From assembly GCA_964535755.1 (NCBI GenBank), contig CAZHTI010000001.1:20720-84719 (forward strand): a stretch of DNA of 64,000 nucleotides. The letters run 5' to 3'. This DNA comes from an uncultured Salinisphaerales bacterium. Its GTDB lineage: Bacteria > Pseudomonadota > Gammaproteobacteria > Nevskiales > Nevskiaceae. The position numbers were made by a program, and so were the translations under genes. Positions within the stretch are counted from its first letter, which is position 1; each line of letters opens with the position of its first letter. Below, in pieces: positions 4,028 to 53,651 of the stretch. The notes under the pieces were generated by a model, which saw only the letters and a program-made list of their open reading frames with translations, was not told the DNA's origin and did not search any database.

Positions 4028-4043
4028 GCGGCTTGGCCTTAGC

Positions 4044-4070
4044 AAAAAGCCCGCGCAAGCGGGCTTTTTT
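4044..4070 (+). terminator. Rho-independent terminator after pckA
   Basis: aaaaAGCCCGC-gcaa-GCGGGCTttttt, 17 nt after the pckA stop. Confidence 0.75.
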
Positions 4071-4163
4071 GTGAGTGCCAGAGTCATCGCGCTGCGCTGC
4101 TTGCGCCGCGATAAAGGCCCGCCGCGTCGTTACACTGCGCGCCCCAATCTCAGCATCGCTCCC

Positions 4164-4406
4164 ATGCCGGCCAAAACCGCCACGCCCGCAAGCACCACCG
4201 AGCCAGTCGCCCAGTTTGAAACTGCGCTGCAAGAGCTTGACCGCCTCGTCCAACAGTTGGAGCGCGGCGAGCTGCCTCTGGAGCAAGCGCTGCAAGCCTT
4301 TGAGCGCGGCAATGCCTTAGCCAATGACTGCCGCAAGGCGCTGGAAGCTGCCGAGCTGAAAATCGCCACGCTCACCGCCCAAGCTGAGGCCAACAGCGCA
4401 GCATGA
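4164..4406 (+). CDS. xseB: Exodeoxyribonuclease VII small subunit
   Basis: ATG at 4164 (M77 of the track ORF). 80-aa product with FETALQELDRLVQQLERGELPLEQALQAFERGNALANDCRKAL, typical XseB. Classic position upstream of ispA-dxs. Confidence 0.85.
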   Translation: MPAKTATPASTTEPVAQFETALQELDRLVQQLERGELPLEQALQAFERGNALANDCRKALEAAELKIATLTAQAEANSAA

Positions 4407-6084: not shown

Positions 6085-6170
6085 GCTGGGTTCAGCCTAG
6101 GGCATTTTGTGCACTGCACCATTGCCAACAGATGACGGATAATCACCGCAACTTTCTCGAATCTCACCCT

Positions 6171-31515: not shown

Positions 31516-31713
31516 ACGCGGCAAACCATTGCTTCTAGCTCTAGGCGCTGTGGGCCCCGCAAGCGGTACTGATTCGCCCGACTTCCCGACCTAGCTCGGC
31601 ATCGCTGTCGCTCAAGATTGCCGGTTGCGGAGCCCATCATTGCCGCCGTAATGCAGCCGGAACCACCGTCGCGGCGCGCTGCTCTAAGCCCTTCCTCCAT
31701 CGCCAGCTCGCCC

Positions 31714-33561
31714 ATGCAACGCCTACTGATCGCCCTTAGCCTATGGTTCGCGGTTTTACTTCCGGCTCAGGCCTACAGCGTCGTCAACGGGCAAATCCGT
31801 GACACCAACGGGCAAGCGGTTGAGTTGCGGGGCATCAATTGGTTTGGCTTTGAGACTGAAACCCTCGCCGCCCACGGCCTCTGGAAGCGCAATTGGAAGG
31901 AGCTGATTGCCCAGATCAAAACCCTCAACTTCAACGCCGTTCGCCTGCCGATTTGTCCTTCTACTTTGCGCGGCGCTGCGGTGTCCGGCGTAGATGGCGC
32001 GCTCAACCCGGACTTGGTGGGGCTTAACTCGCTGCAACTGCTGGATGCGTTCATCAAAGAGTTCGATCGGCAGGGGATTTATGTGCTGCTCGACCACCAT
32101 CGCCCCGACTGCCAAGCGCAGAGCCAGCTCTGGTATACCGACTTCTACTCCGAGCGCGATTGGATCAACGATTTACGCCTGATGGCGGAGCGCTATCGCC
32201 GCGTGGGGAGCGTGCTGGGCATAGATCTCAAAAACGAGCCGCATGGTGTGGCGACTTGGGGCTCGGGCGATAAAACCACGGATTGGAATCTTGCCGCCGA
32301 GCGCGCTGCATCAGAAGTGCTGGCAGTCGCTCCGAACTGGCTGGTGTTCGTCGAGGGCATTGGCCACACCAAGACGTGCACCAACACGCCCGCACACTTC
32401 TGGGGCGAAAACCTAGAGGTCTACGACTGCGCGCCGCTGAATATCCCGCGCCGCAACTTGGTGCTATCGCCCCACGTTTATGGGCCGGATGTGGCGGAAA
32501 TGCCGTACTTCAAAGCACCGAACTTCCCCGCCAACATGCCCGCCGTCTGGGACGCCCACTTTGGCCAGCACAGCCTGCGCGGCCACGCCGTGGTGCTGGG
32601 GGAATTCGGCGGTGGCTACGGCCACTGCGCGACTTTGCAAGACCGAACCTGGCACAACGCCTTGGTTGACTACCTCATCAGCCGTGGGATGACCTCCGCC
32701 TTCTACTGGACGCTGAACCCCAATAGCACGCAAACCGGCGGCCTACTCAAGGACGATTGGCAAACCGTGTGGGAGGACAAATACGCGATGCTGCAAGCCC
32801 TGTTCACCCAAGGCCGCAGCCCACTGCCGCCGCCGTTTTTTGGGCCTAAGGAGGCGAGTGCTTGTAGCCTCGCAGCGCCCCACAAGCCCACAGGTGCTCC
32901 AGCGGGCGTAGGCGACCCCAACTTTGCAGGGCCGAGAAAATCCCTAGGGTTCGTGAAGTTAGACGCCCCGCGCACCGTCGCAGGCCAAGTCTGCCGCGAC
33001 GCGGAAATCCGCAATGACGTGAGCAACCCCATCGCTTGGCAGCTTAGGGTTCGCACGACGGGCGCTGCTGGTACGGTGTCTGAGAACGCCAAGGTCGAGG
33101 CGGCAGACGCAGAGGGATTTTGGCTGCGGGGACGCGGCCGCGATGCCACCTTGGCACCAGGGGAGAAGGCCCGCATCAGCATCTGTGCCGCTCAGGGCTT
33201 TGAAGTTGCGCCGCCGAGCCCTTTGCCGATCAAGCCTGCACCGAGCCCCTCGATACCAGCGGCAGCTGCAAAAAAGCCAACGCCGCCAGCCCAACTGGCC
33301 CCTACCGCAGAGGGCTTTAAGGTGGAGATGGTCAAAGACTCAAGCTGGGAGCAAGGCTACTGCGCCCGCGTGCTGGTGCAGAACCAAAGCAACGAGCTGC
33401 GCGCTTGGCGCGTCAGCCTGCCGGTCCACGGCATAGTCCAAAAAGTCTGGAAGGCTAAATCAGAGCACCGTAATGGCCAGTTGCGCGCCCAAGGCGAGGA
33501 CTACAACCGCGCGCTCAAGCCCAAGGAGTCCACCGACTTCGGCTTTTGTGTGGACTATTAA
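31714..33561 (+). CDS. Secreted GH5 endoglucanase (cellulase) with C-terminal CBM2-like module(s)
   Basis: ATG at 31714 gives signal peptide MQRLLIALSLWFAVLLPAQA. GH5 motifs GINWFGFE, acid/base LKNEPHG, nucleophile LGEFGG. C-terminal WEQGYCARVLVQN...DFGFCVDY resembles CBM2. Confidence 0.85.
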   Translation: MQRLLIALSLWFAVLLPAQAYSVVNGQIRDTNGQAVELRGINWFGFETETLAAHGLWKRNWKELIAQIKTLNFNAVRLPICPSTLRGAAVSGVDGALNPDLVGLNSLQLLDAFIKEFDRQGIYVLLDHHRPDCQAQSQLWYTDFYSERDWINDLRLMAERYRRVGSVLGIDLKNEPHGVATWGSGDKTTDWNLAAERAASEVLAVAPNWLVFVEGIGHTKTCTNTPAHFWGENLEVYDCAPLNIPRRNLVLSPHVYGPDVAEMPYFKAPNFPANMPAVWDAHFGQHSLRGHAVVLGEFGGGYGHCATLQDRTWHNALVDYLISRGMTSAFYWTLNPNSTQTGGLLKDDWQTVWEDKYAMLQALFTQGRSPLPPPFFGPKEASACSLAAPHKPTGAPAGVGDPNFAGPRKSLGFVKLDAPRTVAGQVCRDAEIRNDVSNPIAWQLRVRTTGAAGTVSENAKVEAADAEGFWLRGRGRDATLAPGEKARISICAAQGFEVAPPSPLPIKPAPSPSIPAAAAKKPTPPAQLAPTAEGFKVEMVKDSSWEQGYCARVLVQNQSNELRAWRVSLPVHGIVQKVWKAKSEHRNGQLRAQGEDYNRALKPKESTDFGFCVDY

Positions 33562-33655: not shown

Positions 33656-35377
33656 CTAGGGGGCTTTGGTGCAGAGCGTGAAGCTGCCGGTGCCTGCATA
33701 CGAGGCCACGCGCCAGCGGTAGGTCTGCCTGGACGAGCCGGAGGCATAGTTGATGCTCTCGGAGGAGGTAGCCGTCTCTGAGGCCGCTACCTGCGACCAA
33801 GAGCCGTTGTTAGCGCGGCGCTGCAAGTAGAGGTCAAAGTCAGTCCCAGTAGGGCCTGCGAGTGTCGCGAGCAGTGAGCCGTTAGCACTTGGGCGGAAGC
33901 CAGTGGTGTTCGGCGCGTAGAGGTTCTGGCCGGTTGCGGTGAAATTGCCGGTGTAGGTGGTGTACCCCGTTGGGCAAGCACCCGTGCCGCCGCCACCTGA
34001 TCCACCACCAACGGCGGCTGCTGCAGCAATGGCTGCGGGCGCATCCGCGATACCAGTACCGCACTGACTGCAAGTGGCGGGGAAGGCGCGTGCGGAGGAC
34101 TTTAGTGATGCCTCGACTTGGTCAGGGGTGATCGTTGGCTTGACGGCGTACATCAAGGCAGCGACACCGGCGATGTGCGGTGCGGCCATGCTGGTGCCTT
34201 GAGAGAACCCGTAGCTATCCGCCGCAGGCACCGTAGTGCCAGCGTTGTAGGTGGAGAGCACGCCGTTAGGGTCAGTGCTGCTAGTCATTGACCCACCGGG
34301 TGCTGCGATATCGACAATGCTGCCGAAGTTCGAGTACGGCGCTTTCCCGCCGGAGCGATTGACCGCCGCCACTACGACCACGCCGGAGCAGCTCGCAGGG
34401 CTCTGCGTCGAGGCGTCTTTGTTGGCGTTGCCCGCCGTCACCACCACCGTCGTGCCACGGCTACGCGCCGAGTTAATGGCGGCTTGGCTGGTGGCATCGC
34501 AGGAGCCGGAGCCGCCCAAGCTCATGTTGATCACTTTGGCCGGGTTAGCATTTGCGGGCACGCCGCTGACCGTGCCGCCCGAAGCCCAGATGATGCCGTC
34601 GGCGATATCACTGGTGTAGCCGCCGCAACGGCCTAGGACGCGCACCGGCACGACCTTCGCCCCGTAGGCCACGCCAGCAACACCCGAGCCATTGTTGGTT
34701 ACCGCCGCGACGGTGCCGGCCACATGGGTGCCGTGCCAGCTGGAGTTTCTCGCCGCGCTCCCCGTGCCGCATTGCCCTGCGGTCGTCCAGTCGCCCGGGT
34801 CCTGCGCATCGGAATCTCGGCCATTGCCATCGTTACCGACCGTCGCGTCAGAAATCATGTCGTAACCACCAACGATATTGCCGACCAAGTCCGCATGGGG
34901 GCGATAGCCGGTGTCGAGTACCGCAACAACCACCCCACTACCGGTGGTGGTGTCCCATGCCGTATCGGCGCGGATGCCGCCGGCCGGCTCGAAGTAATGC
35001 CACTGCTCGTTGTAGCGGCTGTCGTTCGGCGTGGCGTCGGCTTGCAAGACGCGGTCTTCCTCAACGTACTCGACCTGCGGATCTGCGGCGATAGCCGCTA
35101 AGTAGCCACGCATCGCCGCCGCATCTAAGCGTTTATCGAGCGCCACGAGCTCTGCGCCGGTACCGAGCGTGCGCATAAACGCGGCGTTCAAGCCATGCGC
35201 GCGGCCTGCATGATCAATCGCGGCAGTGCGGCCCTTGCCGCGCAACTCAGCTGCCGCGCTGGCAGATTTATATTTGACGATCACCCGCTGCTGCAGGCCC
35301 AGCGCAGAAACCGTTTGGGCAAAGCAGAGTGCAGCAAGCGCAAGCGCAAGTCGACGCATTTGGGGGGCAGCAGTCAT
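33656..35377 (-). CDS. Secreted S8 (subtilisin-like) serine protease with pre-peptidase C-terminal (PPC) domain
   Basis: Signal peptide (MRRLALALAALCFAQTVSA) and inhibitor-I9-like propeptide. Catalytic triad contexts VAVLDTGY, HGTHVAGT, GTSMAAPH. C-terminal DFDLYLQ PPC-type domain. Start is 35377 or 35359. Confidence 0.9.
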   Translation of the reverse strand: MTAAPQMRRLALALAALCFAQTVSALGLQQRVIVKYKSASAAAELRGKGRTAAIDHAGRAHGLNAAFMRTLGTGAELVALDKRLDAAAMRGYLAAIAADPQVEYVEEDRVLQADATPNDSRYNEQWHYFEPAGGIRADTAWDTTTGSGVVVAVLDTGYRPHADLVGNIVGGYDMISDATVGNDGNGRDSDAQDPGDWTTAGQCGTGSAARNSSWHGTHVAGTVAAVTNNGSGVAGVAYGAKVVPVRVLGRCGGYTSDIADGIIWASGGTVSGVPANANPAKVINMSLGGSGSCDATSQAAINSARSRGTTVVVTAGNANKDASTQSPASCSGVVVVAAVNRSGGKAPYSNFGSIVDIAAPGGSMTSSTDPNGVLSTYNAGTTVPAADSYGFSQGTSMAAPHIAGVAALMYAVKPTITPDQVEASLKSSARAFPATCSQCGTGIADAPAAIAAAAAVGGGSGGGGTGACPTGYTTYTGNFTATGQNLYAPNTTGFRPSANGSLLATLAGPTGTDFDLYLQRRANNGSWSQVAASETATSSESINYASGSSRQTYRWRVASYAGTGSFTLCTKAP

Positions 35378-35484
35378 GGAAAAACTCCAGTGGGAGGTAA
35401 AGACGAGCACCCTAGTTGGTGGGCGCGCCAGAAACCGAACTTCCGACCAACGATGCACATTTCATGCCCAGGCGGCACTTTCCC

Positions 35485-36795
35485 CTACTTGATCCCTGAC
35501 ATCAGCGCATTGAGTGCTCGGTGATATTCCTGCATTGGGAAGGCATCAGCAGATCGGGCAGCGGCATACAGGGCGTCGATGGCAGCACGCCCCGCGGGGG
35601 AGATCGGTGCACCTTGCGCAGCCAAGGCGTTGGCGAATACCACCGACGCCATCGCGGCTTGTTGTGCGGTCGCAAAATCCCCCGCCCGCGCGCCTCGGCT
35701 TGCGCTGCTGAGACTTTGCAGCATCTGCCGCAGTTGCGTCGCACTGGGCGTTTGTTGCTGCATGCGCGGCAGCACATCCCCGCGCAATTGCTGCAAGAGC
35801 GCTGCTGCTTGCGCCTTTAGGGCTGTCGGCGAGGTTTGTGCAGCCGTCTGCAACTGAGCCACCTGCTGCTGCCATAACCGGCCACGCTCTGGGGCCACTG
35901 CGTGCAGCCACAGCCCAAGCCAATGGAGGTGGGTGTCTGCGAGCGGCACAGCGCCAATCGCCGCAGCGCCATTACGGCCCAGCATCGCCCGTCCTGCACC
36001 CATGGCGTGATGACAGGCGGCACAGTCAAAGTGCACGAGCTCAGGAAACACTCCTTGCTGGAAGCGGCCCTCGGCGAGCCCCTCCAGGTACATCTTGGCG
36101 GCGGCACCCTGCCCGATTTGCCAATCCAACATCCCGCTCTGCCCGCCTTTACGGCGCTGGTAGTCGGCATCGCGGTCGTAATGCGGTGGCTGAAGGCTGG
36201 TGAAGGTGTCCAACTCAAACAGTAAGGGCGGATGCCCTGCGGCCATCATCGCGTGGGTAATTGGCCGCTCAGCATTGCCTTGGTGGCAGCTCAGGCAGAG
36301 CTGTGCGCGCTCAGCACCGCGCCAAGTCGGGAACATCCCCATGCGCTCCTTCTCAGCCAGCGAGAGACCTGGGCGCGTGTGCTCTTTGAGCCAGTTCTGC
36401 GCGCCGCCGTGGCAGGTCTCACAGCCGATGCCGTCGCTGGTTTGGAATTTCGCACCACGCAAATTCTGTGGAACCGACTCGGTATGGCAGGACAAGCAAG
36501 CGCGATCCGTCTGCGGGCTAATGCCGAGTGCTTGGCCGATCTTCCGAGAGCGCTCGGAGCCCAGCGTTGCAAAGGCTTTGCCGTGCACGTCTTGGGTTTG
36601 CCAGATGAAGTATTCGTCCCCGCGAATACCGCTTTCACCGAAGGGGACGGTCGCTGCGTGGCAGGTGCCGCCAGCACAGCTAGCCACACCTTCATGGATG
36701 GCGTCTGCGACGGCCGTAGCGGATGCAATCAGCAGGAGTAAACCCGCCCAGCATGGCGACCACTTAGAGGCTGTGCGCTGCTCTCGTTTCGACAT
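35485..36795 (-). CDS. Periplasmic multihaem c-type cytochrome (4 CXXCH + 1 CX4CH) with haem-free helical C-terminal half
   Basis: ATG at 36795 with GGGAG upstream and a signal peptide (WSPCWAGLLLLIASATAVADA). Motifs CAGGTCH, CLSCH, CETCH, CLSCH, CAACH. The last ~170 aa are Ala/Gln/Leu-rich without Cys. Confidence 0.8.
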   Translation of the reverse strand: MSKREQRTASKWSPCWAGLLLLIASATAVADAIHEGVASCAGGTCHAATVPFGESGIRGDEYFIWQTQDVHGKAFATLGSERSRKIGQALGISPQTDRACLSCHTESVPQNLRGAKFQTSDGIGCETCHGGAQNWLKEHTRPGLSLAEKERMGMFPTWRGAERAQLCLSCHQGNAERPITHAMMAAGHPPLLFELDTFTSLQPPHYDRDADYQRRKGGQSGMLDWQIGQGAAAKMYLEGLAEGRFQQGVFPELVHFDCAACHHAMGAGRAMLGRNGAAAIGAVPLADTHLHWLGLWLHAVAPERGRLWQQQVAQLQTAAQTSPTALKAQAAALLQQLRGDVLPRMQQQTPSATQLRQMLQSLSSASRGARAGDFATAQQAAMASVVFANALAAQGAPISPAGRAAIDALYAAARSADAFPMQEYHRALNALMSGIK

Positions 36796-36933
36796 TTCAA
36801 ACTCCCTTTGCGTCTGTATTCGTGTCCGCGTCACAGTTTATGTGCTCAAGCGCTCGCTAGTCCTTGCACTACGCTGAACCGCACTCTAGGCTGATACTCA
36901 AGAAGCCTCAAGACTGACAGGGAGTGTGGGGGC

Positions 36934-40376: not shown

Positions 40377-42230
40377 ATGAAGATTCTCCTCCGCTCGCAG
40401 ACGGCTGATGGCGCGTTACAGGGCGATCAATGGCTGAATGTCCCCACCTTGCGCATCGGCCGCGACGCCGCCCAAGACATCGTGTTGGCCGATTTCCACG
40501 TCGCCCTAAAGCATGCGGAGATCAACCTCAAGCCTGCATTCTTAGGCTTGGGCAGCACCTTGCGCATCGAGAGCCGTTCCAAGTTGCCGGTGTACGTCAA
40601 TGGCGTGCCGGTACATGGTGCGGATTTGTCACTGGGCGATGAAATCCGCTTGGGCAGGTTTAGCTTGCAGGTTGCCAAGCCACAGGCATCCGCCGACGGC
40701 ACTCTGGTGCTCAAGGAAAGCTACGAGGCGCACGACGAGCGCGATGCACAGAAAGCAGGATTAAAGACCACCCTAAGGGCCGCCGGTTGGTCACGTCGGT
40801 CTATGGCATGGCTGCTGTTCATCGTGGTGTTGATCCCAGCGCTGTTGATTCCGGTTTTTTTGCACCTACAGACGCTCGAAGCAGCGCCCCCTGAAGCCCA
40901 GAAGGTCGACCGTGAATACCGTGCGCAAAAGGTGATGGGTTGGGATATCGCTTGGAATTCTGGGCCTATGTCCTCGGCGCACAAGCAGTTAGCCAACGAC
41001 TGTACGGTTTGCCATCAACAACCGTTCCAACAAGTGACGGATGCCAGCTGCAAGGGCTGCCATGCTGAAGTTGGGGAGCACGCAGCCACGGTGGTCACCC
41101 TGCAACACAGCAGCTTTGCCGATCTCAACTGCACCGACTGCCACCGCGAGCACAACGGCGGTGGCGGTGCGGCTGGCGCATCCTCAGGGCACGGCATCAT
41201 TCCGCTGCAAAATCAGTCCTGTACGGATTGCCACGCAGCGCCTGAAGGCCTGCCGGGCAAACAAGTTTTGGCGGTGAGCACTTGGAGCAAAGACCACCCG
41301 CAGTTTTCTATCCAGTTAGCCCGATACGACGCCAACAAAAGCGCATTCGTCTGGAAGGAGTTCCGCCAAGGCACCGCAGACGCGCTGCGGCAGGACACCG
41401 GCATCAAGTACCCGCACGATATCCACCTCGACCCCAAGGGTATTGATGCACCCGGTGGGCGTAAGGTGCTGGAGTGCGTGGACTGCCACCAACTGGCCGA
41501 TGACGGCGTGCAGTTCAAGCCAATTGCCATGGAACCCCATTGCGGCGAATGTCATCGCTTGGACTTTGACCCCGCCGCAAAAGCCCGTGAGCTGCCGCAT
41601 GGCAAGCCTGCGGAGGTGGTGCAAGTCGTCCGTGACCACTATGCCCGCGTCGCACTCGCGGGTGGCGTTACTGAAAAGGGCGCTCCGGCGATCGTGACTA
41701 GCCGCCGCGCACCCGGGCAATCCTTAAGCCCTGCACTCGCCAAGGCCGCACTGCAATGGGCGGATGCACGCGCAGACGTCGCCCTGCGCGATGTCTTTGA
41801 GCGCCGTACCTGCAACTACTGCCACGAGGTGACGAAGCAAAGCGGCGACGCCACAGCACCTTGGCAGATCGCTCCGGTTGCACCGGTGCAGCGGACGATG
41901 AACAGCAGCGTCTTCCCCCACCAAGCGCATGCGACGGAAACCTGCGAAAGCTGCCACGACGTCAGCAAGTCCAAGAAATCTGAAGACGTGCACCTGCCCA
42001 AGATCGAACAATGCCGCGACTGCCACGGCGATACCGGCGCGATGACTGAAGTCGAAGCGGCCTGCCAGACCTGCCACGTGTACCACCTCAATGACTTGAC
42101 TCCCGCCGGGTCTAGCAGCAATTCGGCCAAACCCACTTTGCCCGCGGCGCACCCGGCGATACCCGCTGCCAAGCCCTCTAGCGAGCTCAATACCGTCAAG
42201 CCATCGGCACTACCGGAGCAGAAGTCATGA
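40377..42230 (+). CDS. FHA domain - single TM - decahaem c-type cytochrome
   Basis: 617 aa. The N-terminal ~100 aa are FHA-like (LRIGRDAAQDIVLADFHVALKHAEI...VYVNGVPV...GDEIRLGRFSL). TM helix MAWLLFIVVLIPALLIPVFL. Ten CXXCH motifs follow (CTVCH, CKGCH, CTDCH, CTDCH, CVDCH, CGECH, CNYCH, CESCH, CRDCH, CQTCH). Confidence 0.85.
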   Translation: MKILLRSQTADGALQGDQWLNVPTLRIGRDAAQDIVLADFHVALKHAEINLKPAFLGLGSTLRIESRSKLPVYVNGVPVHGADLSLGDEIRLGRFSLQVAKPQASADGTLVLKESYEAHDERDAQKAGLKTTLRAAGWSRRSMAWLLFIVVLIPALLIPVFLHLQTLEAAPPEAQKVDREYRAQKVMGWDIAWNSGPMSSAHKQLANDCTVCHQQPFQQVTDASCKGCHAEVGEHAATVVTLQHSSFADLNCTDCHREHNGGGGAAGASSGHGIIPLQNQSCTDCHAAPEGLPGKQVLAVSTWSKDHPQFSIQLARYDANKSAFVWKEFRQGTADALRQDTGIKYPHDIHLDPKGIDAPGGRKVLECVDCHQLADDGVQFKPIAMEPHCGECHRLDFDPAAKARELPHGKPAEVVQVVRDHYARVALAGGVTEKGAPAIVTSRRAPGQSLSPALAKAALQWADARADVALRDVFERRTCNYCHEVTKQSGDATAPWQIAPVAPVQRTMNSSVFPHQAHATETCESCHDVSKSKKSEDVHLPKIEQCRDCHGDTGAMTEVEAACQTCHVYHLNDLTPAGSSSNSAKPTLPAAHPAIPAAKPSSELNTVKPSALPEQKS

Positions 42231-44170
42231 GCTTGCGCGCACGCTTTTTCGCGCTGATGACCGCCGCCGTGCTCAGTGCCTGTGGCGGTGGTGGCGGCAC
42301 GAGCCCATGCGATGGCTCTTGCGGCGAGGCCACACCGGTGCGCTTGGAGATCAGCGAGGTTGAGCGGGTGCTCAGCTCGGCGATTGCGGAAGCGCAGGCC
42401 CGTAACGCCGCAGCGACCATCGCGGTAGTGGATCGCGTCGGCAATGTGCTCGCGGTGTACCGCATGCAGGGGGCGGACATCAGCATCGAAGCGCGCACTG
42501 GGTTACCGGTTGAGGGCGGGCTGGAGGGCGTCAACGTCATCCCCGATGGCTTGGTTGCCATCGCCAAGGCGGTGACCGGCGCATTTTTATCGACCGAGGG
42601 CAATGCCTTTACCACCCGAACGGCCAACCAAATCGTGCAAGACCACTTCAATGTCGGCGAGCGCGACCAACCCTCCGGGCCCTTGTTCGGCGTGCAGTTT
42701 TCCTCGCTGGCCTGCTCTGATCTCAACCTACCGTTTGCCGGTAGTCGGCCAACCGTCGGTCCGCAGCGCAGCCCCTTGGGGCTTGGGGCCGACCCCGGGG
42801 GCTTCCCGCTCTACAAGGGCGGCGTGTTGGTCGGTGGCATCGGTGCCGTTGCCGATGGCACCTACGGTGCCGACCTCAACATTAGCGACACCGACCAAGA
42901 CTTGGACGAGTTGATCGCACTGGCCGCCACACGCGGCTTTGAGCCACCTGAGGATCGTCGCGCCGACCGCATCACGGTCGATGCCAAAACCCTGCGCTAC
43001 AGCGACGCCAAACCCTCCGACCTGCGCAGCACCACGGTGCCCGTCTTTAACGCGCTGCCGGCAAATACCGGCGCGCTCATCAGCGTGCGCGGGTATATGG
43101 CGTCAGGCGACACCGCAATCCGCCGTGGCACCAGCTTTGGCCGCCCAGAATCTGGGATTCGTCCGGCCGGCCTCGCAGCTTTTGCGCAACATGATGGCTT
43201 TGTGTTGGTGGATGCCGCCAACCTAGAGCGCTTCCCTCCCCGTGCTGGAGCGGATGCCGCAACGATCGGCGCGAGCAACATACTCAATGCCTCTGAGGTC
43301 ACCACGATCTTGGAAGAAGCACTCAAGCTCGCCAACCGCGAGCGCGCGCAAATCCGCCGCCCCTTGGGTAGCCAGAGCCGCGTCACGATTTCCGTGGTCG
43401 ACACCTTCGGCAGCGTGCTCGGTATTGTTCGCACCCGCGATGCGCCGGTATTCGGCACCGATGTGTCCTTACAAAAGGCGCGCAGCGTGGCGTTTTTCAG
43501 CAATCGAGAAGCCGCCTCAGATTTGGCCTCTACCCCCAACACCACCTACCTAGGCAACAACCAAACCGTCAGCATTGCCGCCTATGTGCCTGCACTGAGG
43601 GATTTCTTAGGCCAGCCCAGCGCGCTGGCAGACGGGGCCTTTGCCTATGGCAACCGCAGCATCGGCAACGTCGCACGGCCATTTTTCCCGGATGGCATCG
43701 ACAACGCCCCGCACGGCCCCTTGTCCAAGCCGCGCGGCGAGTGGAGCCCGTTCTCAACCGGCCTACAGCTCGACCTCGTCAACAGCGCGATCTTGCAGCA
43801 TGTGGTGTTTGTCCTCGGCGGCGGCAACGATGTGGAACCGGGCACATGCACACAAATGCCCGCGACATCCACCGGGCGCAATCGGCTCGCCAATGGTTTG
43901 CAAATTTTTGCCGGCGGCGTTCCCATCTACCGGGGCACCCAGCTTGTCGGTGCCATTGGGATTTCCGGCGACGGTATCGACCAAGACGATTTGGTCGCCT
44001 TCTTGGGTGTTCATAACGCTGGGCAACGGTTGGGCGGCGCGTTGGGCAATGCGCCCAAAGAAATGCGCGCGGACACCATCAACAAAGATGGCAACTTCCT
44101 GCGCTATGTGCAGTGCCCGCAAGCGCCGTTTTTGGACACGGACGAACAAAATGTCTGCGCCGGAAAATAA
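42227..44170 (+). CDS. Lipoprotein with two GlcG/HbpS-like (PF03928-type, haem-binding/DUF336) domains carrying long insertions
   Basis: ATGA overlap with the upstream gene. Lipobox LSAC followed by a Gly-run. Domain 1: IAVVDRVGNVLAVYRM ... GGFPLYKGGVLVGGIG. Domain 2: ISVVDTFGSVLGIVRTRDA...SLQKARSVAFFS ... FAGGVPIYRGTQLVGAIGISGDGIDQDD. Confidence 0.7.
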   Translation: MSLRARFFALMTAAVLSACGGGGGTSPCDGSCGEATPVRLEISEVERVLSSAIAEAQARNAAATIAVVDRVGNVLAVYRMQGADISIEARTGLPVEGGLEGVNVIPDGLVAIAKAVTGAFLSTEGNAFTTRTANQIVQDHFNVGERDQPSGPLFGVQFSSLACSDLNLPFAGSRPTVGPQRSPLGLGADPGGFPLYKGGVLVGGIGAVADGTYGADLNISDTDQDLDELIALAATRGFEPPEDRRADRITVDAKTLRYSDAKPSDLRSTTVPVFNALPANTGALISVRGYMASGDTAIRRGTSFGRPESGIRPAGLAAFAQHDGFVLVDAANLERFPPRAGADAATIGASNILNASEVTTILEEALKLANRERAQIRRPLGSQSRVTISVVDTFGSVLGIVRTRDAPVFGTDVSLQKARSVAFFSNREAASDLASTPNTTYLGNNQTVSIAAYVPALRDFLGQPSALADGAFAYGNRSIGNVARPFFPDGIDNAPHGPLSKPRGEWSPFSTGLQLDLVNSAILQHVVFVLGGGNDVEPGTCTQMPATSTGRNRLANGLQIFAGGVPIYRGTQLVGAIGISGDGIDQDDLVAFLGVHNAGQRLGGALGNAPKEMRADTINKDGNFLRYVQCPQAPFLDTDEQNVCAGK

Positions 44171-46301
44171 TCGCCCGCTGCGCCGCCACGCCTTGGCGCT
44201 CGCGGCCGCGCTATTGGCACAACCGAGTGCAATTGCGCTGCCGAGCTTGGCGGAGCTCAAGGCGGATGGCCAAGCGCTCTCTGCTGCCGCCACCGCGAAG
44301 AGCGCCGCGGCGGCTCAGCAGCCCGCGGAGCAGCCAGCGAGCAAGTCGGCCCAAGCTCATGTCACCGCGCAGCCTCCCGCAGGGAGTCCCGCGAAGCCAC
44401 CTCCAGTCGCAATAGCCTCTGCGGCTAAACGGCATGAGCAGGTCGTCGCACCTGCGCCGAGTTCCGAGTTCTTCTACCGCGCTGGCGAAGCTGCTGATGC
44501 CCACCGGGTGGCCGCCCCTCCTGCGGCCACGTCGCCCCGCCCTAGCCTCAAACAGCTCAGCACGCCGACAACGCCTGCTAGCGCAGACACCGCGTTGGCA
44601 GCAGCCCCAGTCGCTCTGCCCCAGCGGCGGCCAGATCGCAGCGTGCAATATCGAGCAATCCCCAGTGCGGAAGCAGTCGACCCGAACGCTGCGACCGGCA
44701 TCCCCAAACTCGCGCCGCAAGAGGTCCGCAGCCCCACCATCGGCGCACCGGTGCCAGACCGTTGGCGCTTGGTGAATGACTTGGGCCTGCTCAAAGAAAA
44801 CCCGCTCGACCCCTATAACCAGAACACACTGAAGGGCGATAAACCCATCCGTGGCGACGACGAGTTTTTAATTCTCTCGGCCATTGCCGACAGCATCTGG
44901 GAACCACGCCGTGTGCCCACACCGGTGAGCCCGCAGAGCACGACGCGGCCGGGTAGCGTGGATATCTTCGGCGGTAGCACACAGAACGTACTGGCCACCA
45001 GCATCATCGTGCCGATCATTTATTTGAAGGGCGACACCGCGTTTAAACCGCCAGATTACGAGCTGCACTTCACGCCCGCCTTCAACTTTAATCACGTCCA
45101 AGTGGAGGAGAACCGCGCGCTACGCATCAGCCCCGGCGAGAGCCGCACGCGGCGCGAGACCTTCATCGGCGTGCAGGAATTGTTCGCCGACTATCACCTG
45201 CGCAATGTCTCGGACCGCTACGATTTCGACTCCATTCGCGTCGGCATCCAGCCGATTTCCTTAGATTTTCGCGGCTTCCTGTTCCAAGACCTGCCGATGT
45301 CGGTGCGCTTGTTCGGCACCCGCGACAACAACTACTGGCAGTACAACATTCTCTGGGCCCGCCGCTTAGAGAAGGACACCAACAGCCTGCTCAACAGCAT
45401 CAACCAGAAGCTGCGGGATGACGACGTTTTCGCGGTCAACCTGTTCCGGCAAGATTGGCCGGTGGTCGGCTTCACCACCCAAGGCATCGTCGCCCACAAC
45501 GTCAATCGAGAAGGCCAAGAGGTTTACTACAACCGCAATGGCTTCATCGAGCGGCCCGGCTCCTTCGGCTTAGAAAAAGGCCGGAACTACCAAGTGACGT
45601 ATCTAGGCCTCAATGGCGACGGCCACTTTGGCCGCACCAACCTCACCGCTGCGGCCTATTTGGCCGTTGGGCGTGAATCCCGTGGCGCGTTTATCGACCG
45701 CCCACGCGAGGTTTTTGCGGGCTTTGCCGCCGCCGAAGCCTCTTGGGATTTCGACTGGACTCGGCTGCGCGTTTCTGGCCTCTATGCCAGCGGCGACCCA
45801 GACCCATTCGACGATACCGCGAATGGCTACGACGCCATCAACGAGCTACCGCTGATTGCCGGTGCTGACACCAGCTACCACATCCGCCAGAGCATCCCGC
45901 TGATCGGCGGCGGCGGCGTTGCGCTGACCACCCGCAACGGCGTACTCAACAACCTGCGCACCAGCATCCAGCACGGGCAGAGCAACTTTGCCAACCCAGG
46001 AACCGTCATCTTGGGCGTGGGGACCGACTTTGACTTGAGCCCGACCTTCCGCCTGAGCACCAATGTGAACCACGTCCGGTTTGCCGACTCAACGGTGCTG
46101 GAAGTTGCGCGCAACCAAGGCAATATCTCGGAAGAACTCGGCTGGGATGTATCGGTCGCCAGTATCTGGCGGCCGTTTATGACCCAGAACATCGTCATCC
46201 GAGTGTCCTACGCAGAGATGTTGCCCGGCAAAGGCTTTAAGCAGTTATTCCCCGATCAACGGGGTTATTCGATGTTGGCCAATCTGGTGTTTACGTATTA
46301 G
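44151..46301 (+). CDS. Putative outer-membrane beta-barrel protein with Ala/Pro-rich N-terminal linker
   Basis: ATG at 44151 (M171 of the track ORF) gives signal peptide MSAPENNRPLRRHALALAAALLAQPSAIA. aa ~30-200 are low-complexity Ala/Pro/Ser/Gln. The remaining ~510 aa have alternating beta-strand-like patterning and end in NLVFTY (aromatic terminal residue typical of OMPs). Overlaps the upstream gene by 20 nt. Confidence 0.65.
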   Translation: MSAPENNRPLRRHALALAAALLAQPSAIALPSLAELKADGQALSAAATAKSAAAAQQPAEQPASKSAQAHVTAQPPAGSPAKPPPVAIASAAKRHEQVVAPAPSSEFFYRAGEAADAHRVAAPPAATSPRPSLKQLSTPTTPASADTALAAAPVALPQRRPDRSVQYRAIPSAEAVDPNAATGIPKLAPQEVRSPTIGAPVPDRWRLVNDLGLLKENPLDPYNQNTLKGDKPIRGDDEFLILSAIADSIWEPRRVPTPVSPQSTTRPGSVDIFGGSTQNVLATSIIVPIIYLKGDTAFKPPDYELHFTPAFNFNHVQVEENRALRISPGESRTRRETFIGVQELFADYHLRNVSDRYDFDSIRVGIQPISLDFRGFLFQDLPMSVRLFGTRDNNYWQYNILWARRLEKDTNSLLNSINQKLRDDDVFAVNLFRQDWPVVGFTTQGIVAHNVNREGQEVYYNRNGFIERPGSFGLEKGRNYQVTYLGLNGDGHFGRTNLTAAAYLAVGRESRGAFIDRPREVFAGFAAAEASWDFDWTRLRVSGLYASGDPDPFDDTANGYDAINELPLIAGADTSYHIRQSIPLIGGGGVALTTRNGVLNNLRTSIQHGQSNFANPGTVILGVGTDFDLSPTFRLSTNVNHVRFADSTVLEVARNQGNISEELGWDVSVASIWRPFMTQNIVIRVSYAEMLPGKGFKQLFPDQRGYSMLANLVFTY

Positions 46302-46328
46302 CCACAGGACGTGGCAAGGGAGACGAAA

Positions 46329-47012
46329 ATGATGCCCAAATGGATGAGACGCGCAGGAGTTGCCGCGCTATTCGGCCTAACCAGCCTAGGTCTCAACGCC
46401 GCCGATCACGTCGATGCGCCCGGCACGGATACCGCCCCTGGTCGCAACCCACAAGTACTCGGAGCGGACATGGCCGATGTCTTCATCTTCCGCCGAGACG
46501 GTGCCTTAGTCGGTGGCATCACCTTTGCGGGCACCCCCGCACCTCGGTCTAGGGTCGATGGCAGCATCGGCAGCTACGACCCCGATGTGATCTACCTCTA
46601 CAACATCGACACCAACGCTGACGCGCGGCCAGAGTTCGTAGTGAAGATGCGCTTCGGCCGCAATGGTGCTGGTCAATGGGGCGTGGAGTTTGAAGACCTG
46701 CCCGGCGCAGGCACAAAGTATGTATTTGGCCCCGTGGAGACGGTACTGCGCTCACGCAACGGCTTGAAGGTATTTGCAGGCCGTAAGGATGACCCCTTCT
46801 TTTTTGACGTCCAAGGCTTCAACGCCACACTCGCCACTTTTGGTGATGACTCTGCACCCAACGGCACCTTGCAGTTCAATGGCAACCGCGATTCCTTCGG
46901 TAGCCGCAATCTCACGGCCCTCGTCTTCGAGATGGATCTCGTGACCATCGCCACCAGAGCACAAAACAATGAGTTGCGGGTTTGGGCCACCACTGAACGC
47001 CTGATGCGCTAG
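46329..47012 (+). CDS. Secreted DUF4331-family protein (N-terminal-half type)
   Basis: ATG at 46329 with AAGGGAG upstream and a signal peptide. Mature N-terminus AADHVDAPGTD, ADMADVFIF and VFAGRKDDPFFFD match DUF4331 hallmarks as I remember them. Confidence 0.7.
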   Translation: MMPKWMRRAGVAALFGLTSLGLNAADHVDAPGTDTAPGRNPQVLGADMADVFIFRRDGALVGGITFAGTPAPRSRVDGSIGSYDPDVIYLYNIDTNADARPEFVVKMRFGRNGAGQWGVEFEDLPGAGTKYVFGPVETVLRSRNGLKVFAGRKDDPFFFDVQGFNATLATFGDDSAPNGTLQFNGNRDSFGSRNLTALVFEMDLVTIATRAQNNELRVWATTERLMR

Positions 47013-47023
47013 GGAGCACTGCC

Positions 47024-47677
47024 ATGTCCAGACACAATTACTTGCGCAATTTCCTATTGATCGGCCTCGCGGCAGCCGCCTCCGCCTGCGGCGGCGGCGG
47101 CGGCGGTGGGGGTGGCAGCAGCGGCGGAAGTCCTAGCCCAGAAGACCCGCGCGGCCCAGATCCTTTCGTATTTTCCACAGCCCCGCTGACTTCCTACCAA
47201 CGCATTGACCGCATGGGCGGCCCGGTCACCGCCACCGTACTCTTGCTGACTCGCGACAAAGACCCGTTCAACGCGGCAGACCCGCTCAACGATGCGGACT
47301 TCGTTGGCAGGCAGGTCACGCAACTCACCAAGATTCATTATGAGTTGGGCGACGATCTACAAGCTGCCGGTTTGACGCTGTGTTCGCGCCACTCTGCGGA
47401 CATTAACCAAGTCGACGTCAGCAAATGCGTGTCGCAAGCCGCGCCCTTTATCGTGCCGGACGTGCTCCGCTTAAAACTGAGCGAGCCCGACGGCTACCCC
47501 AATGGCCGCGACTTCTCCACCTCGGTAGTCAACCGCTTACTTGCCTTTGCCTTGCTCGACCGCGCTGTGCATGACATCGATACCGTAAACCGCGCCGGCA
47601 TCATCAGCCCCGCAAATAATGACGTCAGTTACTCAGCTACCTTCCCTTACTTGGGCGATCCGCACCTAGCACCCTGA
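47024..47677 (+). CDS. Lipoprotein resembling the C-terminal half of DUF4331 proteins
   Basis: Lipobox ASAC plus a Gly/Ser linker. IDRMGGPVTATVLL..KDPFNAADP, YPNGRDFSTSVVNRLL and C-terminal FPYLGDPH resemble the distal DUF4331 motifs. Confidence 0.65.
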   Translation: MSRHNYLRNFLLIGLAAAASACGGGGGGGGGSSGGSPSPEDPRGPDPFVFSTAPLTSYQRIDRMGGPVTATVLLLTRDKDPFNAADPLNDADFVGRQVTQLTKIHYELGDDLQAAGLTLCSRHSADINQVDVSKCVSQAAPFIVPDVLRLKLSEPDGYPNGRDFSTSVVNRLLAFALLDRAVHDIDTVNRAGIISPANNDVSYSATFPYLGDPHLAP

Positions 47678-50946: not shown

Positions 50947-51200
50947 GGGAAGGGCTGATCAGCGACGGCAAAAGACGCGCCGCAGTATTGCGGCGAAGAC
51001 TAGAAACGCAAACCTGCTGAAAACAAAGACCGCCAGCACCAAACGCTTCGTCGGCTCAACTGCACCGATGGCGAAGGTAAATATTTACTTTTGCCGACAG
51101 ACTGCCTGCGGTTTGTTGAATCAACAGTCAGGTGTTGCCAGTATCGACGCCATTGATGGCCCAGCGGGGACATCCACATTAACGATTGGGGAATACGCCG

Positions 51201-53651
51201 ATGCTGCTTAACTTCCGCCGTGGACTGCTCGCCGCGGTGCTCACTGCGACCTGTACCTTACCGACCACTGCACTGACCTCCGATGCCCTCAGTAAGGTCG
51301 ACCCGAGCCTTCTCACTGCGGCGCAGACCCACCCACAGTTGGAGTTTCTGATTCGCATGGGAACGGCGGCGGACCTCTCGATGTCGGAAGCGGCGCGAAC
51401 GCGCGAAGCACGCGGCAAGATCGTCGTACAAATCCTCAAAGCGCATGCGGCTGCGAGCCAGAAGGACCTGTTAGCGCAGCTCAATGCGCGCGGCCTAAAG
51501 CACCGTAGCTTTTGGATAGCCAACAGCGTGGCGGCGACGGGCAGTCTGGCGGACATCCAAGCCCTCGCCGTGCGTCCGGATATCGCCCACATTTACTTGG
51601 TAAAGGCCGAGCGGCCCAACCTGCCCGGCGGCGTTGAGGCCGCAAGCCTCGCTTCCGCCTTCGACCCCAGCACCAGCACGAGTATCGAGCCCGGCTTGGT
51701 GCGGGTGGGCGCACCCGAGGTTTGGGCGAAGGGCTACACCGGCCAAGGTGTGGTGGTGGGCGACCACGACATCGGCGTGGAATGGACGCACCCCGCTCTC
51801 AAGAAAAAATATCGCGGCTGGGACGAGGCTAACCAATCCGCGAGCCACGACTACAACTGGCGCAACGCGTTCGAGGTCGATACCTACTGCCCTGACCCGG
51901 CCATCCCCTGCGATCCCAACAGCCACGGTACCCACACCACTGGCACCATGGTTGGGAGTGAAGACGGCGGCAGGGTGGTCGGCATGGCACCCAACGCACA
52001 GTGGATAGGCTGCCGCTCGCTCTACGATGACATTGCCGGTGCAGGCACCGTGCCGACCTACATGGACTGCATGGAGTTCATGCTCGCGCCCTTCCCCATC
52101 GGCCAACCTGAAATGGGCGACCCGAGCAAAGCACCGGATGTAGTCAACAACTCGTGGGGCTGCTTGGAGGCTTGTGCGCCGCCCCTGCTCAAGGACATCA
52201 ACGACGCCACCAAGGCTGCGGGGATCGTGCAGGTGGTATCCGCAGGCAATGACGGCTCACAGTGCATGACCATCATCACGCCGCTCGCCGTCTACGACTC
52301 CAGCTTTACCGTTGGCGCGTCGAATACCGTGGATGACGGCATGGCATCGTTCTCCAGCCGTGGGCCGGTGGCGGTGGATGGTTCGATGCGCATCAAGCCA
52401 GACATCGTCGCACCCGGTGTCGGGACGGTCTCGACCGTCCCGGGTGATGGTTATGGCGCAAAGAGTGGCACCAGCATGGCGGGGCCGCATGTGGCCGGTT
52501 TGGTCGCGTTGATGATGAGCGCCGAGCCTAGGCTCAAGGGCCGCGTCGATGATGTGCGCAATTTGATTACCCGCACCGCTTTTACGGGTGTCGCCAGCAC
52601 GCAGGCCTGTGGCGGTGTCGCTGCCTCGACCATCCCCAACAGCGTCTTTGGCTTTGGCCGTATTGATGCCCTTGCCGCTGTCAACGGCATCCCCAAACTC
52701 GAAACGACGGTCAGTGCGCCAGCGTCGGCAATGCGCGACACCACCTATCCCGCAAGCATTACCGTGCGCCAAGCCGATGGCGGCAAAATTGACGTGACCC
52801 TCGCCACCTTAGAGGTGACGCTCGCTCCGGGAGTCAGCGTGATCGCAGCAACGCCGACGCCTGCCGCTGTGGCGTCCGATCTCAACGGCACCACCCTCGT
52901 GTTTAGTCGGGCAGCGGCGCTCGCACCGTCGCAGCTGTGGCAAATCGATTTGCAGCTCAAGTCCAGCAGCGGCGGCGCGAAGGCCATCCGCGCCGTCGCC
53001 GAGGGCAACCAAGTAAGCCCACAGGCGGGTGCGGAGGTCATCACCCTAATTGAAGCCGGTGTTACGCCTTTTGCTTTTATTGAGCGCAACCCAGTGGCCT
53101 TGGGCAAGATGATCACCAGCGAGGAGATTACGCTGCGCGGCTTCAGCGGCAGCCTGCCGATCAGCGTGAGTGAGGGTGCTCAGTACCGCATTAACGGCGG
53201 CGCGTTCACCAATTCTGTAGGCACCGTCCACGCGGGGGATACCCTCGCCGTGCGTCATGTATCCGCGACGAGCGTCAGCACCCGTACCGTGAGCAGCGTG
53301 ACGGTAGGCAGCTACAACGCCGCCTTTGTCAGCGTCACCACCTCAGAAGACACCGTGCCTGCGCGCTTTGGCTTTGCCACGCTGACTAACCAAGCGCCCA
53401 ATACTCTGGTGACAAGTGCGGCGATTGTGCCAACCGATTTCGACGCCGCCGCCAGCGTGTCGCCCGGCCCGAATGCTCAGTACAGCGTCAATGGCGGACC
53501 GTTCACGAATAGCGTCGGCAAGATAGCGCCTGGTCAGACCTTGGCCATCCGGCACTTGAGTAATCGGGCCGCGCTTGGCTACACCAAGAGCTATCTCAAT
53601 GTCGGCGGCGTGACTGGCCACTTTGTCACGCGGACGCGGCAAGCTCCATAA
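51201..53651 (+). CDS. Secreted S8 serine protease with two tandem ~95-aa C-terminal repeat domains
   Basis: ATG at 51201, signal peptide. Triad contexts VVVGDHDIG, HGTHTTGT, GTSMAGPHVAG. C-terminal repeats are centred on QYRINGGAFTNSVGTVHAGDTLAVRH and QYSVNGGPFTNSVGKIAPGQTLAIRH. Confidence 0.88.
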   Translation: MLLNFRRGLLAAVLTATCTLPTTALTSDALSKVDPSLLTAAQTHPQLEFLIRMGTAADLSMSEAARTREARGKIVVQILKAHAAASQKDLLAQLNARGLKHRSFWIANSVAATGSLADIQALAVRPDIAHIYLVKAERPNLPGGVEAASLASAFDPSTSTSIEPGLVRVGAPEVWAKGYTGQGVVVGDHDIGVEWTHPALKKKYRGWDEANQSASHDYNWRNAFEVDTYCPDPAIPCDPNSHGTHTTGTMVGSEDGGRVVGMAPNAQWIGCRSLYDDIAGAGTVPTYMDCMEFMLAPFPIGQPEMGDPSKAPDVVNNSWGCLEACAPPLLKDINDATKAAGIVQVVSAGNDGSQCMTIITPLAVYDSSFTVGASNTVDDGMASFSSRGPVAVDGSMRIKPDIVAPGVGTVSTVPGDGYGAKSGTSMAGPHVAGLVALMMSAEPRLKGRVDDVRNLITRTAFTGVASTQACGGVAASTIPNSVFGFGRIDALAAVNGIPKLETTVSAPASAMRDTTYPASITVRQADGGKIDVTLATLEVTLAPGVSVIAATPTPAAVASDLNGTTLVFSRAAALAPSQLWQIDLQLKSSSGGAKAIRAVAEGNQVSPQAGAEVITLIEAGVTPFAFIERNPVALGKMITSEEITLRGFSGSLPISVSEGAQYRINGGAFTNSVGTVHAGDTLAVRHVSATSVSTRTVSSVTVGSYNAAFVSVTTSEDTVPARFGFATLTNQAPNTLVTSAAIVPTDFDAAASVSPGPNAQYSVNGGPFTNSVGKIAPGQTLAIRHLSNRAALGYTKSYLNVGGVTGHFVTRTRQAP

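Follow-up and report, generated by a model that had tools for sequence, protein, structure and literature searches.

What purpose might a phosphothreonine-recognition fold serve on the cytoplasmic end of a multihaem cytochrome? The question is raised by a gene in a 64-kb stretch of DNA (64,000 nt, hereafter the window) from an uncultured Salinisphaerales bacterium of the family Nevskiaceae (assembly GCA_964535755.1, contig CAZHTI010000001.1), whose product combines an N-terminal forkhead-associated (FHA) domain, one membrane helix and ten haem c attachment motifs. The original prediction, made from the sequence alone, had read this protein as a phosphothreonine reader coupled to a haem wire. 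The best explanation of the locus as a whole, to which we give a probability of roughly 0.5, is instead that the decahaem protein forms the periplasmic wire in a three-part transmembrane redox module whose FHA domain serves for docking. The other two parts would be a cytoplasmic reductase (RED) and a predicted five-helix membrane protein (MEM), both encoded upstream. That the decahaem protein is a subunit of a conserved transmembrane redox module is, in our judgment, very likely.

Fold and topology of the FHA-decahaem cytochrome

Exactly ten CXXCH motifs were counted in the protein (at amino acids [aa] 209, 225, 252, 282, 367, 389, 479, 523, 546, and 563), in agreement with the ten haems first proposed, and together they use all 20 of its cysteines. 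Ten further histidines (aa 202, 235, 259, 307, 347, 350, 408, 515, 518, and 570) are invariant, so that the protein has the number of ligands needed for ten bis-His haems. Every CXXCH motif of the family is invariant in alignments down to 27% identity. Matches above the gathering scores were returned for the Pfam families Cytochrome_C7 (52.7 bits; gathering score, 24.8), Cytochrom_c3_2 (43.4 bits; 25), and Cytochrom_CIII (28.5 bits; 22.9), and by profile the protein is a class III (c3/c7-type) multihaem cytochrome with predicted haem attachment. A search of PDB sequences with the decahaem domain returned no significant relative, the nearest being a weak match to a fragment of NrfH (E = 0.1). 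After the CHREHNG motif comes an insertion rich in Gly and Ala, GGGGAAGASSGHG (window positions 41154 to 41204, aa 260 to 276 of the cytochrome); it is missing from all aligned homologues and was modeled with a predicted local distance difference test score (pLDDT) below 50. The Pro/Ala-rich C-terminal tail (aa 570 to 617) is disordered and variable.

Only one hydrophobic helix was found in the protein, at approximately aa 143 to 163 (Kyte-Doolittle hydropathy up to 2.84), as had been supposed, and the AlphaFold2 model built from 47 sequences places a long helix at aa 142 to 168, after the FHA domain. Since the basic stretch WSRRS precedes the helix and an acidic stretch follows it, the positive-inside rule would put the N terminus inside. 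Given that the helix lies 140 residues from the N terminus, it should act as a signal-anchor rather than a cleavable signal peptide, and these two features together would leave the FHA domain in the cytoplasm and the haem domain exported. The position of the helix and its flanking charges therefore bear out the topology claimed at the outset, a cytoplasmic FHA domain joined to a periplasmic decahaem domain. Three residues in and around the helix, R141, W145, and P159, are invariant in an alignment of 23 sequences and at least 90% conserved across 47, which suggests specific packing of the helix and not a passive anchor.

The claim that the N-terminal region is an FHA domain was upheld both by profile and by fold. 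Pfam FHA (PF00498) matched aa 26 to 93 (37.7 bits; gathering score, 20.7), AlphaFold2 predicted a beta-sandwich for aa 1 to 110 (pLDDT, 91 to 98), and all top 50 Foldseek matches in the PDB were FHA domains, with GarA and OdhI in the lead (target TM-scores, 0.75 to 0.78). The profile for the cytoplasmic FHA domain of YscD (PF16697) scored below threshold (29.7 versus 33.2 bits). Because conservation of the N-terminal motif M-[KR]-[VI]-L-[LI]-R and of the FHA core extends to relatives of only ~27% overall identity, the FHA region is translated from position 40377, and a start codon farther downstream, which would have left it untranslated, is ruled out.

The pocket of the domain has fared differently from its fold. 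Pocket residues were assigned by alignment to GarA, and tallies were made over the N-terminal domains of 179 family members. Among the five canonical residues, only Gly28 (Gly in 179/179), Arg29 (Arg in 168/179), and His46 (His in 151/179) are kept in the window protein. The position of the phosphate-contacting Ser is occupied by Ala43 (Ala in 102 members and Ser in 12), that of the Asn in the beta6-beta7 loop by Leu70 (Asn in 12), and the Arg that follows the canonical Ser by Leu44 (Leu in 136). Canonical residues at the Arg, Ser/Thr, His, and Asn positions all at once occur in only 3 of the 179. The Gly-Arg and His of the FHA signature named in the original prediction are thus in place, while its Ser and Asn are not. 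Both Ser and Asn touch the phosphopeptide in solved FHA domains, and in Rad53 and GarA binding is lost when the Ser is mutated to Ala. The domain keeps the FHA fold but, judging from these residues, is unlikely to read phosphothreonine.

Could the domain nevertheless be a genuine phosphothreonine reader, with a Hanks-type Ser/Thr kinase encoded elsewhere that phosphorylates RED, MEM, or another partner and thereby switches the conduit? The FHA fold and profile score, the invariant Gly28 and the largely retained Arg29 and His46 would accord with such a role, and kinase genes need not adjoin their targets. Furthermore, Ser is retained at its canonical place in the Myxococcota clade of the family, and Ser/Thr kinases abound in myxobacteria. 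In that same clade, however, Gln replaces the conserved His. Neither a Hanks-type kinase nor a PP2C phosphatase was found in the window or in 78 related loci by phmmer searches of all open reading frames (ORFs) with flanks of up to 10 kb, for which the PknB kinase domain and PstP, both validated against the PDB, served as queries. The domain also proved dispensable in a clade comprising Methylophilaceae and Ferrovum and replaceable by a Cys-rich domain in a distant one. Considering these results together with the substituted Ser and Asn, we regard a phosphothreonine switch as unlikely, and the coupling of a phospho-signaling reader to a haem wire was not supported by the comparison. The domain is probably phospho-independent, and we see about an even chance that it docks RED or MEM. 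Recruitment of the reductase encoded at 36934 by the FHA domain, already raised as an option by the original prediction, is favored here as well, as a putative docking interaction.

The fusion of FHA domain, helix, and decahaem domain is real and conserved and not a one-off; it is ancient, widespread, and subject to selection. Searched exhaustively, a set of 1.84 billion proteins (representatives at 50% identity) gave 2,266 matches, at least 564 of them at E ≤ 1e-30, and nearly all relatives align from query aa 1 to 25 up to ~570. The N-terminal domain is found in ~90% of relatives. Among the 150 matches listed, 148 representatives were newly returned, of which 145 have exactly ten CXXCH motifs; in ~133 the first membrane helix falls at aa 120 to 160, indicating that the N-terminal domain is present.

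Candidate redox partners and their conservation

The first of the two candidate partners, RED, has a thioredoxin reductase (TrxR)-like domain for FAD and NAD(P)H of the FNR-type subclass, which holds a single Cys and hence no redox disulfide. Two cyclic-nucleotide-binding domains are also present, with the canonical phosphate-binding cassettes FGEMSLISGRRRSA and GEMALMTEQPRSA, and the C terminus is HycB-like, with 16 cysteines in four ferredoxin-type motifs, enough for four [4Fe-4S] clusters. Matches in the PDB correspond to this composition: YpdA/TrxR-like reductases, the tandem cyclic-nucleotide-binding domains of the regulatory subunit PKA-R, and HycB. No membrane segment was found in RED.

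The second candidate, MEM, has five predicted membrane helices and a helical cytoplasmic insert of ~140 aa. All of 76 sequences compared share five invariant histidines (H96, H110, H120, H298, and H312). Two pairs of equal spacing are formed by four of these, H96-x13-H110 in transmembrane helix 3 (TM3) and H298-x13-H312 in TM5, and with the RKRKY loop inside, one pair would lie near each face of the membrane; the fifth invariant residue, His120, is at the periplasmic end of TM4. Such pairs are the classical ligands in dihaem transmembrane b cytochromes, including cytochrome b of the bc1 complex and NOX. Below threshold, the profile for prokaryotic cytochrome b561 (PF01292) was matched by 30 of 35 members (best E = 7e-7) and DUF4405 by 14 of 35, and one source labels a member of the MEM family "ferric reductase like." MEM is therefore likely a dihaem b cytochrome, a reading to which the His patterns and the sub-threshold profiles both point. 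Apart from a generic ferredoxin similarity to HmcB, neither RED nor MEM matched a Tmc or Hmc equivalog. The MEM family is very large, with at least 7,694 sequences at E ≤ 1e-5 among 8,000 scored candidates, and Pfam has no family dedicated to it.

When one genome of each GTDB species was scanned with an alignment of nine closer sequences, 78 loci were found. The order RED-MEM-decahaem-HbpS-like and the common strand are kept in essentially all of them by tblastn, and MEM lies directly upstream of the decahaem gene in 75 of 75 loci with enough flank. Positions of RED and of the HbpS-like gene were taken from tblastn coordinates, as ORF-based adjacency undercounts because of over-extended starts. 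In the window (Table 1) the genes form a tight array on one strand, with gaps and overlaps of -20 to +57 nt: 23 nt between RED and MEM, 57 nt between MEM and the decahaem gene, an ATGA at which the decahaem stop and the HbpS-like start overlap, an overlap of 20 nt between the HbpS-like gene and the gene for protein X, and 9 nt between the latter and the first DUF4331 gene. The MHC2 gene diverges from the array across an intergenic region of 100 bp, and MiaB and RecJ bound the cluster on its right side.

Table 1. Coordinates of the FHA-decahaem cytochrome, its parts, and the neighboring genes in the window
Feature	Position	Strand	Basis
MHC2, secreted c554-like cytochrome, four CXXCH and one CX4CH	35485..36834	-	Pfam Cytochrome_C554, motifs
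RED, putative cytoplasmic reductase, 799 aa	36934..39333	+	Pfam, PDB matches, motifs
MEM, 320 aa, five predicted transmembrane helices	39357..40319	+	Invariant His, sub-threshold profiles
FHA-TM-decahaem cytochrome c	40377..42230	+	ORF (ATG start, 617 aa), motifs, Pfam
FHA domain, aa 1-115, degenerate phosphothreonine pocket	40377..40721	+	Pfam, AlphaFold2, Foldseek, residue counts
Single membrane helix, aa 143-163, predicted N-in/C-out	40803..40865	+	Hydropathy, conserved residues, model helix
Decahaem domain, aa 202-570, predicted periplasmic	40980..42086	+	Ten CXXCH and ten invariant distal His
Triple HbpS-like (PF03928) lipoprotein	42227..44170	+	Three Pfam stretches, lipobox LSAC
X, secreted, 716 aa, probable outer-membrane beta-barrel	44151..46301	+	Signal peptide, C-terminal ...LVFTY
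Two genes jointly covering the DUF4331 profile	46311-47012, 47024-47677	+	Pfam, synteny

Most hosts of the 78 loci are aerobic heterotrophs or methylotrophs and not iron oxidizers. Among the Nevskiales, the cluster is present in the isolates Fontimonas thermophila DSM 23609, Nevskia soli DSM 19509, Stagnimonas aquatica THS-13, Panacagrimonas perspica DSM 26377, and Solimonas fluminis HR-BB, so that it can be tested directly in culture; the other hosts are Steroidobacteraceae, Alcanivorax and Azotimanducaceae bins, Alphaproteobacteria, Methylophilaceae, Ferrovum, Myxococcota, and bins labeled Spirochaetaceae.

The FHA domain is missing in the Methylophilaceae/Ferrovum clade (L057, L059, L064, and L068), in which the protein starts ~24 residues before the helix. 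In the same clade the RED gene no longer heads the cluster but stands at its tail, and the conserved cytoplasmic R-I-G-G-G motif of MEM is lost; this covariation of FHA loss with the move of RED and the loss of the MEM motif is suggestive. Two distant relatives (P0046 and P0047) carry a cytoplasmic domain of 100 residues with 14 cysteines in place of the FHA domain. They belong to a distant variant of the module, L081/L082 (4943 to 11578), where the cyclic-nucleotide-binding polyferredoxin protein lacks the TrxR-like FAD domain and is adjoined by a separate FNR-type flavoprotein (FAD_binding_6 and NAD_binding_1) with an N-terminal membrane helix; this flavoprotein also matches the ferric-reductase NAD-binding domain, and genes for MEM-like and decahaem proteins follow. 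Because the flavin module has been replaced there non-orthologously, we argue that an NAD(P)H dehydrogenase is integral to the system. The MEM-like protein of L081/L082 is 247 aa long and has one H-x13-H pair and no TM5, and the decahaem protein of this variant bears the Cys-rich domain.

Proposed electron flow and control, and competing readings

These features are consistent with a path of four steps. RED would take electrons from NAD(P)H via FAD and its four [4Fe-4S] clusters, the two putative b-haems of MEM would carry them across the inner membrane, and the ten predicted bis-His c-haems of the decahaem protein would relay them through the periplasm. From there they would pass to the HbpS-like lipoprotein, the probable outer-membrane barrel, and accessory multihaem cytochromes, and the three-part module would belong to a larger envelope-spanning gene cluster. 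The FHA domain would serve for docking or assembly independently of phosphorylation and would keep RED or the cytoplasmic insert of MEM at the membrane b and c cytochromes.

We lean slightly toward an outward flow of electrons from NAD(P)H. The potential gap between NAD(P)H and haem c, together with the membrane potential, favors this direction, and it would suit the mostly aerobic heterotrophic hosts and the parallel with NOX and ferric reductases. Reductive acquisition of iron or haem is a candidate use for the exported electrons, hinted at by the name of PF03928 ("haem degrading") and by feoAB beside the cluster in one relative.

Control of the module probably acts through the cyclic-nucleotide-binding domains of RED and not through Ser/Thr phosphorylation. 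Since the nucleotide-binding cassettes are canonical and the FHA pocket is degenerate, the intact signal reader of the system would be the tandem pair in RED, and regulation would then be exerted by a cyclic nucleotide at the reductase. Genes for CHASE2-adenylate/guanylate cyclases flank the cluster in at least ten loci from several lineages. A CHASE2 cyclase gene together with genes for TPR and FecR-domain proteins lies just upstream of RED in nine Steroidobacteraceae-type loci (L041 [1824 to 6737], L033, L038, L042, L045, L054, L069, L076, and L077), a CHASE2 cyclase gene is next to MEM in L067 (6760 to 9000, minus strand), and another is downstream in L081 (12625 to 15680). A class III cyclase is found near the Solimonas clusters, and no cyclase gene was found in the 64-kb window.

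Several observations weigh against the three-part module with its docking FHA domain. MEM has no significant match in Pfam or among PDB sequences, and Foldseek with its model (pLDDT, 73) returned nothing from the PDB better than E = 0.5, the matches being mostly helical-bundle sensors. Arg29 is nearly invariant, and so the loop of the FHA pocket may still bind an anionic group, possibly phosphate. The association of the FHA domain with the MEM motif comes from a single clade and is one evolutionary event, and by a regular-expression test eight FHA-bearing loci also lack R-I-G-G-G; moreover, because the FHA-less clade retains RED of the same type, the FHA domain is not essential for RED. The large, highly conserved secreted LVIVD protein that most other loci encode (see below) is missing both in the closest relative, L079, and in the window, in which X and DUF4331 are just 9 nt apart (46301 to 46311). 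Without it the conduit here may be incomplete, or the gene may be encoded elsewhere. Finally, relatives are present in Fe(II) oxidizers (Ferrovum and, in the literature, Gallionellaceae), for which inward flow has been proposed and in which electrons may run the other way.

The last of these points leads to a second alternative, that the decahaem protein is a quinol- or quinone-linked inner-membrane cytochrome resembling NapC/NirT/CymA/NrfH or CbcL/ImcH, acting alone or with MEM, with RED in an accessory or regulatory role. Dihaem b proteins are commonly quinone-reactive, and one N-terminal helix followed by a periplasmic multihaem domain is the arrangement of CymA and NrfH, to which the weak NrfH fragment match may be added. 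In iron oxidizers, including the Ferrovum and Gallionellaceae relatives, inward flow from Fe(II) to quinone would be possible, as put forward in a 2026 preprint (bioRxiv 10.64898/2026.01.22.701106). However, the decahaem protein came nowhere near the cutoffs of the NapC/NirT, NrfH, DmsE/MtrA, and QrcA profiles, and no Pfam or NCBIfam match near cutoff was obtained for the NapC/NirT/NrfH/CymA or QrcA families. In addition, the constant co-occurrence with an NAD(P)H-flavo-polyferredoxin protein and its replacement in L081 speak for an integral cytoplasmic partner, and aerobic heterotrophs and methylotrophs make up most of the hosts. We therefore consider a quinone-linked cytochrome improbable. 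Less probable still is that the FHA domain serves only self-association or localization (an SctD-like ring or array, or polar targeting) and recruits no redox partner, for although the sub-threshold match to PF16697, the SctD-like topology, and the loss of the FHA domain from otherwise retained clusters would agree with it, the cluster contains no secretion-system or cytoskeletal genes, and a Cys-rich cytoplasmic replacement is better explained by a role facing a cytoplasmic redox partner.

Within the preferred reading, the three-part module with a docking FHA domain, the various strands can be joined into one more far-reaching proposal, which we offer tentatively and consider less likely than not: an unrecognized NAD(P)H oxidoreductase that spans the envelope, a kind of "split NOX" lengthened by wires of iron-sulfur clusters and multiple haems. 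Dedicated CHASE2 cyclases would supply the cAMP or cGMP that gates its export of electrons to the periplasm or cell surface, and the phospho-independent FHA domain would be an adaptor assembling the reductase on the b and c cytochromes. If true, such an enzyme would be widespread among aerobic heterotrophs, methylotrophs, and iron oxidizers, and its electrons could serve iron or haem acquisition.

Known systems and the remainder of the cluster

Combinations of an FHA domain with multiple haems have been noted in the literature, in a table entry and in a descriptive section, but without analysis or experiment. Table 1 of the pangenome study by Hoover et al. (2023; PMC10734462) lists a "Forkhead-associated protein" with ten CXXCH motifs as cluster 403 in 27 Gallionellaceae genomes, and in a preprint Ferrigenium straubiae is described as having a "nonaheme cytochrome c (NHC)" that carries an FHA domain and adjoins a 5-TM and a [4Fe-4S] protein (bioRxiv 10.64898/2026.01.22.701106). 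The same preprint counts nine haems, reports no redox motif in the 5-TM protein, proposes electron transfer from Fe(II) to quinone, and calls the combination of FHA and multihaem domains previously unreported. The statement in the original prediction that no FHA-multihaem protein had been characterized accordingly holds, while the fusion itself was already listed in 2023 and remarked on in 2026. The Ferrigenium NHC and Gallionellaceae cluster 403 are alike the window protein in their cytoplasmic FHA domain, single helix, and periplasmic multihaem domain, a likeness by description. Unlike the NHC, the window protein has ten haem sites, MEM has two invariant H-x13-H pairs, RED adds FAD/NAD(P)H and cyclic-nucleotide-binding domains, and the hosts are mostly aerobic heterotrophs. 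If the proteins are homologous, the His pattern of MEM adds to the preprint's description of its 5-TM protein. Literature searches for decahaem cytochromes with cyclic-nucleotide-binding, thioredoxin reductase, or HbpS partners found nothing.

Precedents for an FHA-type docking domain are provided by two systems. In SctD, the inner-ring protein of type III secretion (YscD/EscD/PrgH/MxiG), an N-terminal cytoplasmic FHA-type domain is likewise followed by one helix and a periplasmic domain. The SctD-type domain lacks the canonical phosphothreonine residues and docks a cytoplasmic complex, which it links to the membrane ring. The periplasmic part of the window protein is, in contrast, a decahaem domain and not a set of ring-building domains, its PF16697 score is below cutoff, and no secretion genes are nearby. 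GarA and OdhI, regulators from actinobacteria, are the closest solved FHA structures by both sequence and fold, and the FHA domain of GarA binds metabolic enzymes directly with the partner unphosphorylated (complexes PDB 6i2q and 8p5r). GarA is small and soluble, with an intact phosphothreonine pocket and a kinase-controlled switch, whereas the window domain is tethered to the membrane and has its Ser and Asn replaced. If its proposed role is correct, it would be a further case of the FHA fold as a phospho-independent adaptor, here on a redox complex.

As an electron conduit, the module shares its logic of periplasmic multihaem c, membrane b, and cytoplasmic iron-sulfur components with Hmc and Tmc of sulfate reducers and with Geobacter CbcL, a functional resemblance only. 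The C-terminal c3 module has a weak TmcA-like match, and the TmcA family scored 24.4 bits against a cutoff of 114. In contrast to Hmc and Tmc, the module has no HdrD-like protein as its cytoplasmic partner but an NAD(P)H flavoprotein with cyclic-nucleotide-binding domains, and the c-type subunit is membrane anchored and bears an FHA domain. NOX/FRE and MsrQ-Fre likewise run from NAD(P)H through flavin and two stacked b-haems to an acceptor outside; here, however, the components are on separate proteins, four [4Fe-4S] clusters would come before the b-haems and ten c-haems after them, and MEM is not recognizable as a member of the ferric-reductase-domain family. CymA and NrfH also have one N-terminal helix and a periplasmic multihaem domain but hold four haems and no cytoplasmic domain, while MtrA and DmsE have ten haems and also lack a cytoplasmic domain. 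MtrA is soluble, and the window protein is not a member of the DmsE family (TIGR03508; 15.9 bits against a cutoff of 192.2).

To our knowledge, the known electron-export routes of Gram-negative cells start at the quinone pool (CymA-Mtr, or ImcH/CbcL with a porin-cytochrome conduit). Direct entry from NAD(P)H via a flavo-polyferredoxin protein and a b-type protein, if true, would be a different entry point for electron export, and it would tie cyclic-nucleotide second-messenger signaling to extracytoplasmic electron transfer. The module, moreover, is found in bacteria that are not considered electroactive, namely Nevskiales, Steroidobacteraceae, marine and freshwater Gammaproteobacteria, streamlined Methylophilaceae, and Myxococcota. 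What sets it apart is the degenerate FHA adaptor, the putative NAD(P)H-flavo-polyferredoxin donor with its cyclic-nucleotide-binding domains, and a previously unrecognized candidate dihaem b partner.

Regarding the rest of the cluster, a homologue of X occupies the matching position in nearly all loci at 39 to 69% identity. X matched no Pfam family and is probably an outer-membrane barrel, judging from its signal peptide and C terminus. Most loci include a cytochrome of the MHC2 type, which lies upstream in divergent orientation in Nevskiales and otherwise closes the cluster on its downstream side. By eye, no obvious Fur or CRP box was seen in the divergent intergenic region, and scans for promoters and terminators, Rfam families, and tRNAs gave nothing informative. 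Two large subtilase (S8) genes (33656 to 35458, minus strand; 51186 to 53651, plus strand) and a GH5 cellulase gene with CBM2 (31618 to 33561, plus strand) flank the cluster in the window and are not syntenic with it in other genomes. In the closest relative, L079/L080, feoA and feoB lie beside the cluster (1 to 724; the window protein is 59% identical), set apart from it by an unrelated protein of 1,322 aa. A link to iron uptake through Feo is weakly supported, as feoAB is found in L079/L080 only and in none of the other 78 loci.

The DUF4331 gene pair joins the cluster only in Nevskiales. Its profile is split over two frames, and a pseudogene or frameshift was considered and rejected, since in the relative L001 there are likewise two distinct genes, of which one encodes a signal peptide and the other a lipoprotein signal. 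Most other loci have a secreted protein of ~1,260 to 1,320 aa after X (L001, 15613 to 19332; L059, 15616 to 19455). For this LVIVD decahaem protein of related loci, no significant relative was found among PDB sequences, and literature searches on LVIVD proteins and Methylophilaceae returned only unrelated systems. The copy in L059 (1,279 aa) combines LVIVD beta-propeller repeats with ten CXXCH motifs and has a weak ExtM-like match (68 bits against a cutoff of 800). Between Methylophilaceae and other lineages, the LVIVD proteins are 45 to 66% identical, mostly 55 to 66%.

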